NCBI GenBank assembly: GCA_000004695.1
Contig: CM000154.2
Location: 4,256,001-4,320,000, forward strand
Direction of reading: 5' to 3'
Source of the DNA: Dictyostelium discoideum
Taxonomy: Eukaryota
Length of the DNA stretch: 64,000 nt
Below, one piece after another: positions 16,924 through 38,465 of the stretch (its first letter is position 1; every line of letters begins with the position of its first letter). The notes under the pieces are model-generated. The model saw only the letters and a list, made by a program, of their open reading frames with translations, did no database searches and was not told where the DNA came from. The translations under genes were made by a program, and so were the position numbers.

Positions 16924-18935
16924 CTATATTTCTTTAATAATTTCTACAGATTCATCTAATTTACAAATATCTAATGATTGATTAAAATTATATTGTAAAA
17001 TAATTTTTGGTATATGTTTGGGTATTGATCCTTCAATTAGTGGTGTATTCATTTCTCCTAATGTTAATTGCTTTATTGAATTTGGAATGATTCCTGGTGT
17101 TAGTTGATGTTTGAATCCTCCATAAATACTGAGATATGTTACAGAATTTGGTATTGAATTTATTTCTAATGATTGTTTAGTACCATTTAAATATAAGAAT
17201 TTCGCTCCATCACTAATTATACCTGGTGTTATTAATTGATCGAAAACATCATTGAAATGTAAATTAGTGACTGATTTAGGAATTGATCCAACAACTAATG
17301 GTGATTTAATATTATAGAAGTATAAATATTTTACACTTTCTGGTATAATACCTGGTGAGAGTAATTGTTTAAAACCATCATTAAACGTAATTGATTCAAC
17401 TGAATTTGGAATTGAACCAATCTTTAATTCACTTTTAATATTATTTAAACTTAACTCTTGTATACCTTCAGGTATCAAAGAAATGGTACCGATTGATAAT
17501 GGTTGATTAAATCCATTTTGTAAACAAAGATAAGATACAGTTTTAGGAATTGATCCAATCTCTAATGAATGTTTGATATCTCTTAAATTCAAATATCTGA
17601 CGCTCGAGGGAATAATACCTGGTTCTAGTGATTGGGAAAATCCATCACAAACATGCAAATGATTTACAGAATTAGGAATTGAACCAATCTTTAATGGCTT
17701 TTTAATGTCGTGTAGATATAAATATTTAGCCCTCGAAGGAATAATACCAGCTTCAATTGATTGATTAAATCCATCATGAAATGATAACCACCCAACACGT
17801 GATGGTATTGATCCAATTACCAAGGGTGTTTTAATATCATATATATCTAAATATTCAATACCAAGTGGTAATACACCTGGTTCTAAACTTTCTTTAAATC
17901 CATCTAATAATATTACATGCCAAAAATTTTTATTTGATTTAAGTTTTAATAAACTACCGCACTCTTCTCCAAGTGCAATTTTAACATCATCTTTTGGTAA
18001 TTCACTGTTCTCTGAATATAAATAATACTTTTCACCACTACCAAATTCTATTTTTAAAATAAAATGTTAATATACTTTTATTATTTACATATATACTTGT
18101 AATTAAACATACTTTTTATAAATTTATAATTATTTTCATCAGTTTCAATCTTAAATTTTTCATTTAATTCATTATTATTTTTATTATAATTATTATTATA
18201 ATTATTATTATTATTATTATAATTATTATTAATAAGTTCATATATTGATTCTAAATTATTTTTAATTTCATCAATTATTTGATTATTGAATTTAATGATT
18301 TGATTATTATATTCTTTTAATTTATTTTGATTATTGATATTTATATTATTTTTTAATAACAATAATGATTGTTGATATTGTTTAATTAGTTCAATTGTAT
18401 CAGTACCTTTATGATAACCAATAATATCTTCATCACCATAATCATAATCATTATAATTTTGTTGAATATTTTTTATTGAATTGTTTAATTTATCAATCAT
18501 TGGGTTATTATTATATTTATTACTATTATTATCAATATTGATTGAGGAGGTAATAGTTGCATTTATTAATGTATTTTCTTGGAAAATTGTTTCTAATTGT
18601 TTTTCGATATCTAATTCAAGTATTGAGAGTATGTGATGAAGTTTTTTAAATTCATCTTTAAGTAATTTTTTATTTTCATCATTTTGTAATTGAATTTCAT
18701 TGAAAATTTCATTGGAATCTTTTAATGTTTGTTTATTATCTCCAATTCTTTCAAGTAATTTCGGGTAAACATCGTCTTTAAAATTATTCATCATTGAAAG
18801 AATGTTTGATATTGATATTGGTTCTAATCCATGACGATGATGAGAACCATTACTGGATGCACATAAAATACAACATGGTATTAATTTACAATCTAAACAT
18901 AAAAGTTCAACATTTTTACTTGGATGGATTGAACA

Positions 18936-18986
<51 letters not shown>

Positions 18987-19001
18987 TGTTAATGATATCA
19001 T
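16924..19001 (-). CDS. Copy A of the tandem family: B-box zinc finger / coiled-coil / poly-Asn / FNIP-repeat protein (about 670 aa), apparently intact.
   Basis: Exon 1 is 19001-18113: poly-N, Cys/His B-box-like finger [39 protein letters not shown], coiled-coil region. The minus-sense donor is GTATGT. A 65-nt intron spans 18112-18048. Exon 2 is 18047-16924 and encodes about 14 FNIP repeats (GSIPxSVxxLxFxxGFNQxLxPGIIPxSVKYL). The FNIP frame opens exactly at the acceptor, downstream of an in-frame TAA. Confidence 0.6.
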
Positions 19002-19075
19002 AATATAAATTAAAAGGTCTGATAGTTTTTTTTATTGTTCAAATGAAGTTATTATTGATTTTTGATGGTGAAAAA
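19002..19075 (-). promoter_or_regulatory. Conserved 5' leader/promoter module of the B-box/FNIP paralogs. Minus-sense core: TTTCACCATCAAAAATCAATAATAACTTCATTTGAACAATAAAAAAAACTATCAGACCTTTT.
   Basis: The same roughly 70-bp block sits immediately upstream of every paralog ATG: 28283-28330, 30166-30230, 34535-34600, 38267-38330. An orphan copy lies at 25590-25660. Confidence 0.3.
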
Positions 19076-19355
19076 AATGAAAAAAAAAAAAAAAAAATGA
19101 AAAAAAAAATTATTATCTTAAATATTTGGGTGTTTTATTTTAAATTTTCAATCTTCCCACATCCACAATTTATTTTTTTTTTAATTAAAAAAAAGTTAAA
19201 AACAATAATTTAAAAATAGAAAAAGATAAAAAAAAAAAAAAAAAATTAAAAAAAAATAAAAAATAAAAAACCTAATACAGTAAAATATTTTAATTCTATT
19301 TCTATTTCTAATTTTATTTAATAATTTCTACAGATTTATCTAATTTACAAATATC

Positions 19356-20934
19356 TTATGATTGATTAAAATTTTTTTGTAAAATAATTTTTGGTATATT
19401 TTTGGGTATTGATCCTTCTATTAGTTGTGTATTCATTATTCCTAGTGTAAATTGCTTTTTTGAATTTGGAATGATTCCTGGTGTTAGTTGATGTTTGAAT
19501 CCTTTATAAATACTGAGATTTGTTACAGAATTTGGTATTGAATTTATTTCTAATGATTGCATAGTATCATTTAAATATAAGAATTTCACTCCATCACTAA
19601 TTATACCTGGTGTTATTAATTGATCGAAACCATTTTCGAACCATAAATCAGTGACTGATTTAGGAATTGATCCAACGACAAATGGTATTTTAATATTATA
19701 GAACAATAATTTTTTTTCACTTTCTGGTATAATACCTGGTGGGAGTAATTGGTTAAAACCATTATTAAATGAAATGGATTCAACTGAATTAGGAATTGAC
19801 CCAATTTGTAAATTTAAATTAATTCCATTATAAAATTATAATAATATAACGCCATTTGGAATTGAACCAACCTTTAATTCACTTTTAATATATAAACTTA
19901 ATGTTGTATACCTCCAGGTATCAAAGAAATGGTTTCGATTGATAATGGTTGATTAAATCCATCTTCTAAGCAAAGATTATCAACAGTTTTTGGAATTGAT
20001 CCAATCTCTAATGAATGTTTGATATCTCTTAAATATAAATATTTGACACTTGAGGGAATAATACCTGGTTCTAATGATTGGGAAAATCCATCACAAAAAC
20101 CCAAACTATTTACAGTATTAGAAATTGAACCAATCTTTAATGGCTTTTTAATGTAGAATTAAAATTCCAACACTAGAAGGAATAATACCATCTCCAATTG
20201 ATTGATTAAATCCATCATGAAATGTAACCACCCAACACTTGATGGTATTGATCCTTTTACTAATGGTGTTTTAATATCACATATCACTAAATATTCAACA
20301 CCAAGTGGTAATACCCCTGGTTCTAAACTTTCTTTAAATCCATCTAATAATATTACATCCTTTATATTTTCATTTGATTTGAGTTTTAATAAACTACCAC
20401 AATCTTCTCCAAGTGCAATTTTAACATTATTTTTTGGTAATTCACTGTTCTCTGAATATAAATAATACTTTCCAATACCAATTTCTATTTTTAAAATAAA
20501 ATGTTAATATACTTTTATTATTTACATATATACTTGTAATTAAACATACTTTTTATAAATTTATAATTATTTTCATCAATTTCAATCTTAAATTTTTCAT
20601 TTAATTTACTATTATTATTATTTTTATAATTATTATTATTATTATTATTATTATTATTTAGTTCATAAATTAATTTTAAATTATTTTTAATATCATCAAT
20701 TATTTGATTATTGAATTTAATGATTTGATTATTATATTCTTTTAATTTATTTTGATTATTGATATTTATATTATTTTTTAATAATAATAATGATTGTTGA
20801 TATTGTTTAATAAGTTCAATTGTATCAGTACCTTTATAATAACCTATAATATCTTCATCACCATAATCATAATCATCATAATTTTGTTGAATACTATTAA
20901 TATTTTTTATTGAAATATTTAATTTATCAATCAT
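19356..20934 (-). pseudogene. Copy B: 5'-truncated, frameshifted B-box/FNIP paralog.
   Basis: The FNIP region 19356-20470 is broken into several short ORFs with frameshifts. The upstream exon retains only the coiled-coil half ([13 protein letters not shown]...KYICK). The zinc-finger part is replaced by an (ATT)n tract. Confidence 0.5.
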
Positions 20935-37280: not shown

Positions 37281-37353
<73 letters not shown>

Positions 37354-37659
37354 ATTATTATTCTTATCATTATTATTAATAAGTTCATAAATTAGTTTTA
37401 AATTATTTTTAATACCATCAATTGTTTGATTATCGAATTTAATTATTTGATTATTATATTCTTTTAATTTATTTCGATTATTGATATTAATATTATTTTT
37501 TAATAACAATAATGATTGTTGATATTGTTTAATTAGTTGAATTGTATCAGTATCTTTATGATAACCATTAATATCTTCATCACCACAATCGTAATCATCG
37601 TAATTTTGTTGAATATTATTAATATTCTTAATTGAATTATTTAATTTATCAATCATTGA

Positions 37660-37743
<84 letters not shown>

Positions 37744-38295
37744 ATTATTATTATTATTATTATAATTATTATTACTAATATTTTTATTATAATTACTATT
37801 ATCATTATCATTATCATTATCGATTGAAGAGGTAATAGTTGCATTTATTAATGTATTTTCTTGGAATACCGTTTCTAATTGTTTTTCAATATCTAATTCA
37901 AGTATTGAGAGTATGTGGTGAAGTTTTTTAAATTCATCTTTGAGTAATTTTTTATTTTCATCATTTTGTGATTGAATTTCATTGAAAATTTCATTGGAAT
38001 CTTTTAATGTTTGTTTATTATCTCCAAATCTTTCAAGTAATTTTGGACAAATATCATCTTTAAAATTATTCATCATTGAAAGAATGTTTGATGTTGATAT
38101 TGGTTCTAATCGATGACGATGATGAGAACCATTACTTGATGTACATAAAATACAACATGGCATTAATTTACAATCTAAACATAAAAGTTTCACACTTTTA
38201 CTTGGATGGATTGAACATTTTTTATTATTATTATTATTTATTAATGACATCATAATATAAATTAAAAAGGTGTGATAATTTTTTCTATTGTTCAA
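36030..38295 (-). CDS. Copy F: intact B-box zinc finger / coiled-coil / double poly-Asn / FNIP-repeat protein.
   Basis: Exon 1 is 38295-37221 (376-aa ORF with finger [39 protein letters not shown] and two (AAT)n tracts of 40+ Asn). Donor GTATGT. Intron 37220-37154. Exon 2 is 37153-36030 with a continuous FNIP-repeat frame. Confidence 0.6.
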
Positions 38296-38465
38296 ATGAA
38301 GTTATTATTGGTTTTTGTGTTGTAAAAAAAAAATGAAAAAATGAAAAAAAAAAAAAAAAAAAATTTCTTAAATCTTTAAGTGTTTGATTTTAAATTTGTG
38401 ATATAAAATTAAAAGTAATTTTAAAAAAATTAAAAAAGATTATAAATTAATTTATTTTATTCTCA

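Follow-up and report, generated by a model that had tools for sequence, protein, structure and literature searches.

Does a run of related genes, most of them disabled, record the decay of a dispensable family, or the turnover of a cluster that is maintained for recognition? The question is raised by a 64,000-nt stretch of chromosome 5 of Dictyostelium discoideum AX4 (GenBank assembly GCA_000004695.1, contig CM000154.2, positions 4,256,001 to 4,320,000, forward strand), referred to here as the window, which contains six related units of one gene family whose intact members encode a B-box finger, a coiled coil and a series of FNIP repeats. Coordinates are window positions unless stated otherwise. 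We found a gene cluster of unstable structure, specific to the D. discoideum clade; the most probable reading is that it encodes cytosolic recognition adaptors that diversify under selection and turn over by birth and death. Codon comparisons indicate purifying selection on the B-box/coiled coil and on the scaffold of the leucine-rich repeats (LRRs), and accumulation of replacements on the predicted binding face about 2.6 times faster than silent changes. The combination of strain-variable copies and a fast-changing predicted binding surface resembles the pattern of immune-receptor gene clusters.

Repeat finding and self-BLAST located six paralogous units (A to F), all on the minus strand, between 16.9 and 38.3 kb, at the positions given for them in a first-pass annotation of this DNA, with unit-to-unit identity of 80-92% over about 1.5-2.3 kb. 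The pairwise alignment proposed there as a check gave identities to unit A of 89.3% (B), 91.1% (C), 89.3% (D), 92.0% (E) and 92.2% (F), a similarity far beyond chance. Units were compared by pairwise alignments to A and by segment-wise alignments; aligned six ways over their full length with MAFFT, they were put out of register by the internal repeats. All six units contain the same short phase-1 intron (GTATGT...AAATAG, 64-67 nt), as predicted, with the donor G of units A to F at 18112, 20549, 27326, 30013, 33581 and 37220, respectively. The start context TTAATTTATATT-ATG is common to A, C, D, E and F (19001, 28239, 30155, 34521 and 38253). Poly-Asn tract lengths are strongly unequal between copies in the gene models, in agreement with the same annotation. 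Its description of a head-to-tail array is correct as to orientation, but the array is interrupted, forming three pairs (B>A, D>C and F>E) that are split by two plus-strand genes, cupH (21976-24282) and a short-chain dehydrogenase gene (SDR, 30973-31945). The window is extremely AT-rich, and the array is flanked by a thiamine-pyrophosphate (TPP) enzyme gene ending at about 15689 and by a gene for a 447-aa protein at 39576-40919. A protein search of the window revealed no further fragments of the family; the DNA itself contains a single orphan 5' leader, near 25.6 kb. tRNA genes, possible marks of retrotransposon activity, were looked for and none was found.

Of the six AX4 copies, two are intact, one is interrupted by a single nonsense codon and three are heavily damaged, and the earlier account of each holds at the level of spliced models and individual lesions. 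Unit A (16924-19001, minus strand; exon 1 19001-18113, intron 18112-18048, exon 2 18047-16924) is an intact gene with a 670-aa product (296 + 374 aa) composed of poly-Asn, a B-box2, a coiled coil, a helical linker and 14 FNIP/LRR repeats. It is preceded by a conserved 5' leader and upstream region (19002-19150, minus strand); this leader also precedes C, D, E and F. Unit F (36030-38253, minus strand; exon 1 38253-37221, intron 37220-37154, exon 2 37153-36030) is intact as well, with a product of 718 aa (344 + 374 aa). Unit E (32392-34521, minus strand; intron 33581-33516) was recently inactivated: its FNIP exon (33515-32392) is intact, with 374 codons, and the only interruption of the unit is a TAA at 34104-34102 in place of the GAA of the other copies. 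Coding indels of E relative to A are all multiples of three up to the last three codons, within which an 8-nt indel changes only the last two residues and the position of the stop codon.

The remaining three units are pseudogenes. Unit C (26543-28239, minus strand; intron 27326-27263) retains an open exon 1 (28239-27327) that includes the B-box and the coiled coil, but 532 nt equivalent to A 17042-17573 are deleted, out of frame, from within its FNIP exon (junction 26789/26768); a duplicated 74-nt 3' piece lies at 26543-26616. Unit D (28701-30155, minus strand; exon 1 30155-30014, intron 30013-29949) has lost the finger and the coiled coil, the first poly-Asn tract joining the last few residues of exon 1 directly. 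Its exon 1 (M-I-S-L-T...) has 47 aa from the ATG, or 63 aa of open frame if the in-frame leader is included, and was reduced by a polyN-to-polyN deletion; in addition, the FNIP exon contains three frameshifts (-4, -2 and -2 nt). Unit B (19313-21039, minus strand; intron 20549-20485) is truncated at its 5' end. Homology begins at about 21039, inside the second poly-N tract, leaving no B-box and no first coiled coil, and the FNIP exon carries frameshifts of -1, -5 and -1 nt and a 66-nt extra repeat.

Synteny was examined in seven other genomes over the interval that runs from the TPP enzyme gene through the SDR gene to the 447-aa gene, the SDR gene serving as the anchor inside the array. It was a better anchor than cupH: from two members of cupH's 90%-identity protein cluster, the main cup cluster of other isolates was reached and not the orthologous site. 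D. citrinum and D. firmibasis have the same flanking genes and no family member within 10 kb at the syntenic interval. Two other D. discoideum isolates, GCA_054859385.1 and GCA_054859355.1 (presumably CR116C and OT3A of PMC12745789), contain three units each (X1-X3 and Y1-Y3) and no cupH at this site, and the 'cf. discoideum' genome, representing a cryptic sister lineage, contains six (Z1-Z6), all six with open FNIP exons. The number of units at the syntenic site varies between genomes (0, 3, 6 and 6). Compared with the two isolates that carry three units, AX4 has an extra stretch from 19.24 to 30.09 kb of the window (B, cupH, the orphan leader, C and D). At the syntenic site of D. dimigraforme (4677-8349 of the locus) there are two plus-strand genes, encoding a 739-aa FNIP protein and a 217-aa B-box/coiled-coil protein, the latter 56% identical to the N-terminus of unit A.

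Lesions are found in the other genomes as well: (i) a B-box frameshift in X2; (ii) an AAT>TAA change in Y3; and (iii) a frameshift in Z6; these are independent of the AX4 lesions. Y2 (11115-12472 of its locus) has the same polyN-to-polyN deletion as D, joined to an intact 373-aa FNIP exon; in both units exon 1 runs from the start through poly-Asn directly into SKLNEKF.... Such deletions recur, or else persist as a short form. The finger-less D-type form may therefore be a usable short form instead of pure decay, and the B-box-less form may be functional in the isolate that carries Y2. Unit D also keeps a 132-nt block of two repeats that every Z unit but Z3 contains as well.

Bootstrapped trees were built from four segments. 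A, X1 and Y1 group as positional orthologs (97%), and the Z copies are monophyletic in three segments (93-99%), the 5' half of the FNIP exon giving 66%. The segment trees disagree on where the other AX4 copies belong, which points to exchange between copies. Silent divergence between AX4 paralogs is 0.09-0.13, exceeding the SDR divergence between strains (0.05-0.06) and close to the SDR divergence from the Z lineage (0.14). The cluster grows and shrinks by several routes, namely duplication, mosaic exchange between copies, deletions between poly-AAT tracts, loss or gain of repeat blocks, and ectopic insertion of a cupH segment. The first-pass annotation had proposed birth-and-death evolution in progress, and the empty site in sister species, the three versus six units among isolates and the lineage-specific lesions all argue for it.

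FNIP repeats belong to the LRR class, with the consensus LxxLxFGxxFNQ, and their concave and edge positions are known from solved structures (Huyton et al., PMC9525666). The FNIP region of the array proteins matches Pfam PF05725 (E 6e-61), with scores of 202.7 and 190.5 bits against a gathering cut-off of 21, in 9 stretches. As estimated earlier, it holds 14 canonical repeats of 21-22 aa in register, plus caps, or 17 predicted rungs when the caps are included. The AlphaFold model of the FNIP exon (predicted local distance difference test score, pLDDT, 93.8) has one short strand per 21-22 residues, and a Foldseek search with this model gave the giant-virus FNIP protein CroV588 (6nyr) as the best match (E 1.5e-13, template-modelling score 0.68), followed by Toll-like receptors; the family profile matched CroV588 with E 6e-77. 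These models and profiles are indicative of an LRR solenoid of 14 repeats like that of CroV588. The earlier statement that FNIP repeats occur almost only in dictyostelids and giant viruses should be amended, as they are also found in Ectocarpus and Entamoeba (PMC9525666; bioRxiv 10.64898/2026.03.01.708701).

Selection was assessed on the repeats. Stacking the 14 repeats shows that the most variable residues are those on either side of the conserved Leu and Phe of V-x-x-L-x-F-x-x, and the same variable registers are seen in AX4 with the two fellow isolates and, independently, in the Z copies alone. A test whose hypervariable positions came from the tested sequences themselves was discarded as circular and redone, first with registers defined from the Z copies and then with registers defined from LRR structure. 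With the Z-defined registers, pairs of AX4 copies have a ratio of nonsynonymous to synonymous rates (dN/dS, omega) of 2.7-3.0, versus 0.5 elsewhere (Fisher p at most 8e-4). The a priori class, xxLxLxx, comprises residues that are solvent-exposed in LRRs generally and that form the concave face and its edge in CroV588 (PMC9525666). By parsimony on 15 intact exons, this class has 312 replacement and 22 silent changes (per-site replacement to silent ratio, pN/pS, 2.56; p = 9e-7), and the other repeat positions, whose scaffold codons serve as the internal control, have 164 and 122 (pN/pS 0.43). Silent rates are equal in both codon classes. Elsewhere in the protein omega is low, at 0.2-0.6 for the B-box with the first coiled coil and 0.1-0.5 for the second helical region. 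This site-specific replacement excess on the predicted binding face lends real support to the earlier suggestion of a rapidly evolving recognition locus.

The N-terminal part is predicted to be a RING-less TRIM-type module of B-box2 and coiled coil. Each of eight zinc ligands (C23, H26, C35, C38, C44, C47, H54, H57) is present in all or at least 90% of 24 homologs, and their spacing is that of a B-box2, C-x2-H-x7-8-C-x2-C-x4-5-C-x2-C-x3-6-H-x2-4-H. A single-sequence search of the PDB with the N-terminus returned nothing significant, and a family profile was needed; with it, the TRIM28/KAP1 B-box2-coiled-coil was matched at E 2e-5 (aligned positions 11-115) and that of TRIM5alpha at E 1.3e-3 (positions 13-162), both alignments extending into the coiled coil, and TRIM3, MID1/2 and MuRF1 were matched as well. 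In the AlphaFold model of exon 1, residues 21-62 form a finger (pLDDT 86-90) and residues 64-159 one helix of about 95 residues, with four shorter helices behind it, which suggests the TRIM layout of B-box, coiled coil and linker; in profile alignments and model alike, a B-box2 is followed directly by a long coiled coil, as is typical of TRIM/RBCC proteins. The modelled finger superposes on the B-box2 of TRIM54 and MuRF1 at 1.3-1.6 A over 41-42 residues, with Foldseek E of only 0.1-0.2. Pfam detected no RING domain, the protein starting with M-I-S-L-T-polyN followed by the B-box, and inspection of the sequence revealed no signal peptide or membrane segment. The family may accordingly be described as a predicted cytosolic fusion of a RING-less TRIM-like module to an LRR sensor.

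The main competitor of diversifying selection is neutral turnover of a redundant, dispensable family, the variable positions being simply the least constrained surface residues, and we consider this explanation rather unlikely, if by no means negligible. Several points speak for it or against a selected recognition cluster. Four of the six AX4 copies are dead, and the overall omega of the FNIP exon is near 1 (0.8-1.1 between paralogs, compared to 0.35-0.5 between orthologs and 0.1 for the neighbouring SDR), so that selection on this exon is possibly weak or episodic. FNIP is the most abundant domain class in Dictyostelium, making redundancy plausible (bioRxiv 10.64898/2026.03.01.708701). The pN/pS values were obtained by counting, not by likelihood, with Nei-Gojobori site counts and Fitch parsimony on a single tree that disregards recombination, although the copies recombine, and the extreme AT bias of mutation could distort the neutral expectation. 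Further points against the main reading concern the N-terminal part and the comparison with a relative: the Pfam B-box profile (PF00643), which had been proposed as a check, narrowly misses its cut-off of 24.1 bits (23.6 for A and 23.0 for F), although database homologs do carry a precomputed PF00643 match; the exon 1 model has an overall pLDDT of 66, a moderate confidence; TRIMs head the Foldseek results for this model, none significantly; and the array was likened to AreA, a Dictyostelium B-box/FNIP protein discussed below, by shared architecture, not by direct sequence comparison.

Nevertheless, relaxation of constraint alone is expected to bring omega up to 1, compared to the 2.6 observed, with p of about 1e-6, for a predefined class of sites, and the silent rates are the same in both codon classes. 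The scaffold, the B-box and the coiled coil are still constrained, the A/X1/Y1 ortholog is intact in three diverged isolates at the ortholog omega given above, and no FNIP exon has been closed in the sister lineage. Neutral turnover explains the pseudogenes, but not an omega above 1 at structurally predicted sites.

If these genes do encode recognition adaptors, their mode of action can be sketched by analogy. The coiled coil would dimerise the protein, as in TRIMs, and thereby present two LRR sensors; the variable LRR face would bind a fast-changing ligand, for example a product of a pathogen, a symbiont or a selfish element; and the conserved N-terminal module would couple this binding to a downstream machine. 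The likeliest partner of that module would be the Atg1 autophagy-initiation complex, by analogy with AreA and with the 'precision autophagy' of TRIMs. AreA, the one protein of this domain pair that has been studied, binds Atg101 and restrains autophagy (PMC4554924), and animal TRIMs act as receptor-regulators that scaffold ULK1/Beclin for selective autophagy (summarised in PMC5758549), which makes autophagy coupling the most specific hypothesis; at present these analogies hint at it. A role of the array in defence or autophagy is likewise putative. The fullest version would be that the genes encode amoebozoan cytosolic immune sensors of a new hybrid design, with polymorphic LRR solenoids carried on a RING-less TRIM scaffold. 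Every copy would detect a different product of a pathogen or symbiont and pass it on to the Atg1 complex, and every strain would keep its own repertoire by birth-and-death; we regard this version as rather less likely than not.

The same relative suggests a quieter alternative, a conserved housekeeping role as an AreA-like autophagy regulator, with redundancy among paralogs and an LRR domain that binds a conserved host partner. The shared domain pair, the Atg101 binding of AreA and the conservation of the N-terminal module are in its favour. However, hypervariable residues on the binding face, copy numbers that differ by strain and an empty site in sister species would not be expected with a conserved partner, and we find this alternative improbable. 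A self/non-self system or an intragenomic conflict (kin or mating incompatibility, or a toxin-antidote-like arrangement), in place of anti-pathogen defence, would fit the presence/absence and sequence polymorphism, which resembles that of the tgr allorecognition hotspot in the same genomes (PMC12745789). A cell-surface role like that of TgrB1/C1 is unlikely, however, because neither signal peptide nor membrane segment was seen, and no paired partner gene co-varies in the cluster; this explanation appears quite improbable. Finally, the idea that one gene was mis-assembled as several copies, in a region that is AT-rich, repetitive and hard to assemble, has next to no chance of being correct and was rejected, because the copies are 8-11% different, each with distinct lesions, and the separate long-read assembly GCA_054883475.1 matches window positions 11956-41962 and reproduces all six units with identical coding sequence.

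In that assembly, the lesions and the poly-AAT tract lengths are identical too, and it differs from the window only between genes, by two substitutions and by short indels that lie nearly all in A/T runs. The single copy that the first-pass annotation had named as the sign of an artefact in a long-read assembly of the same strain was not what we found. Genomes assembled de novo in 2025 from Nanopore and Illumina reads include that of the laboratory strain AX2-214 (PMC12745789), and we equate GCA_054883475.1 with AX2-214 from its near-identity to the window. The coding poly-AAT tracts are identical between these two laboratory-lineage assemblies, though widely different between paralogs. It should be noted that the gene calls for A and F in GCA_054883475.1 have the same ends as ours and are 46 aa shorter (624 and 672 aa), which would imply a second, in-frame intron of 138 nt. 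The shared GT...AG candidates for it lie inside FNIP repeats and do not resemble introns, being 70-74% AT with no GTAAGT or GTATGT donor; the second intron is probably a prediction artefact.

Several neighbouring features illustrate the instability of the locus. The inserted cupH segment (21042-24515, plus strand, 3.5 kb; coding sequence 21976-24282) contains a 768-aa open reading frame identical to AX4 cupH (XP_635652/Q54FW5), a ricin-lectin gene. The segment is a copy, with 91% identity, of the gene that comes first in the main cup cluster of other isolates, a cluster about 1 Mb from the array. Two other D. discoideum isolates lack the segment at the array site. B is cut short at its 5' end where the left edge of this insertion falls. 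The orphan 5' leader with its upstream DNA (25595-26101, minus strand), in which the leader copy is 25595-25778 and the rest is a copy of about 30177-30662 upstream of D, is probably the detached 5' end of B. Between the cupH segment and the orphan leader there is a stretch of about 1.1 kb (24516-25594) with a GC content above that of intergenic DNA and no similarity to the B-box/FNIP family; GCA_054883475.1 has a call for a 155-aa multi-exon gene there (24574-25352, minus strand).

The SDR gene (30973-31945, plus strand) lies outside the family and has one 100-nt intron (31813-31912). Its closest relatives outside dictyostelids are in Bacteroidota (Flavobacteriia, Chitinophaga), with about 50-54% identity over the full length, and the gene may represent an old bacterial-to-amoeba transfer. 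Decayed remnants of a gene for a 255-aa coiled-coil protein are found at 35455-35996, 39160-39490 and 32195-32324; in other isolates this gene is intact between X2 and X3 (and between Y2 and Y3). Its 3' pieces accompany the 3' flanks of E and F, and one lone piece lies upstream of F. A second cluster, with three family members, is located about 1.1 Mb away (GCA_054883475.1, chr5 3.29-3.32 Mb) and consists of an FNIP-only protein of 397 aa, a full protein of 925 aa and a short one of 302 aa. In another isolate the main cup cluster lies at a similar coordinate (3.33 Mb). If the coordinates correspond, cup and B-box/FNIP genes adjoin at both sites, which hints at ectopic exchange between the clusters.

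The array genes sit in a fully sequenced model genome in which the B-box/FNIP pair is already annotated. In the literature that we searched, the array cluster, the TRIM-like coiled-coil module, the strain polymorphism and the selection on the repeat face were not described. Amoebae serve as the evolutionary model of the cell-autonomous immunity of phagocytes. For the question whether they possess cytosolic, polymorphic receptors for intracellular invaders, the array provides testable candidates: a TRIM-like/LRR family with an immune-receptor-like signature of selection and an isolate-specific repertoire. Because only two copies are intact at the locus in AX4 and AX2, a direct test by knockout is feasible, and a relative, AreA, already ties the architecture to autophagy initiation. 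Whatever its function, the locus is a compact natural series from an intact gene through a single nonsense mutation and an internal deletion to gross truncation, and an example of gene turnover driven, in a genome of extreme AT content, by poly-AAT tracts, repeat-block slippage and ectopic exchange.

Comparison with known systems places the array between several of them. CroV588 and CroV539 (PDB 6nyr and 7zal) have the same 22-residue repeat, with the consensus V/LxxLxFxxxFNQxLxxGxIP, and variable residues on the concave face and its edge (PMC9525666). Unlike the array proteins, the viral proteins consist of repeats only, and CroV588 forms a closed circle of 25 repeats, compared to an open 14-repeat solenoid fused to B-box and coiled coil in the array, where two repeat subtypes alternate in a super-repeat of 43 aa.

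Closest in domain content are other Dictyostelium B-box/FNIP proteins, which have the same Pfam pair (PF00643 + PF05725). They include AreA (DDB_G0279871) and the uncharacterised relatives DDB_G0290679, DDB_G0289849, DDB_G0289799, DDB_G0279877 and DDB_G0277005, DDB_G0279877 having an identifier stated as three numbers from that of areA. The best homologs outside the array are 46-55% identical to the units, with matches to DDB_G0290679 (E 3e-176), DDB_G0289849 and DDB_G0279877 (E 1e-22). The Atg101 binding of AreA makes the earlier remark that the B-box/FNIP combination has no assigned function outdated (PMC4554924). AreA differs in that it also carries DUF4559 and is a single studied gene; in the literature searched on these relatives, clustered copies, a pseudogene series, strain polymorphism and repeat-face selection were not described.

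With TRIM/RBCC proteins such as TRIM5alpha, the array proteins share a B-box2, a long coiled coil, a helical linker and a C-terminal target-binding domain. A single TRIM, TRIM37-like, has been counted in D. discoideum (PMC5758549, a 2018 review; PMC3503706). The array proteins differ in having no RING, so that no intrinsic E3 ligase module is predicted, and in ending with an LRR solenoid instead of SPRY, NHL or a similar domain. The TRIM5/6/22/34 cluster offers a parallel at the level of the locus as well, with tandem copies subject to gene gain, loss and pseudogene formation, and positive selection confined to the target-binding domain.

The LRR clusters of plant R genes (NLR/RLP) are comparable in their tandem layout, their birth-and-death with unequal exchange and their strain-variable copy number. 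Diversifying selection on solvent-exposed xxLxLxx residues is established in plant R genes. Here too, copy number and pseudogenes are polymorphic between strains and replacements are in excess at xxLxLxx. Unlike plant R proteins, the array proteins have no nucleotide-binding, TIR or kinase domain, the signalling end being the B-box/coiled coil, and any immune role of theirs is putative. The tgrB/C allorecognition hotspot shows, in the same genomes, local duplication, recombination, pseudogene fragments and strain-specific repertoires (PMC12745789); however, Tgr proteins are transmembrane IPT/TIG proteins encoded on chromosome 3, whereas the proteins of the chromosome 5 array are predicted to be cytosolic. 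If the hybrid-sensor version proves true, the array would be a functional counterpart of the TRIM5 or plant R-gene clusters outside animals and plants.

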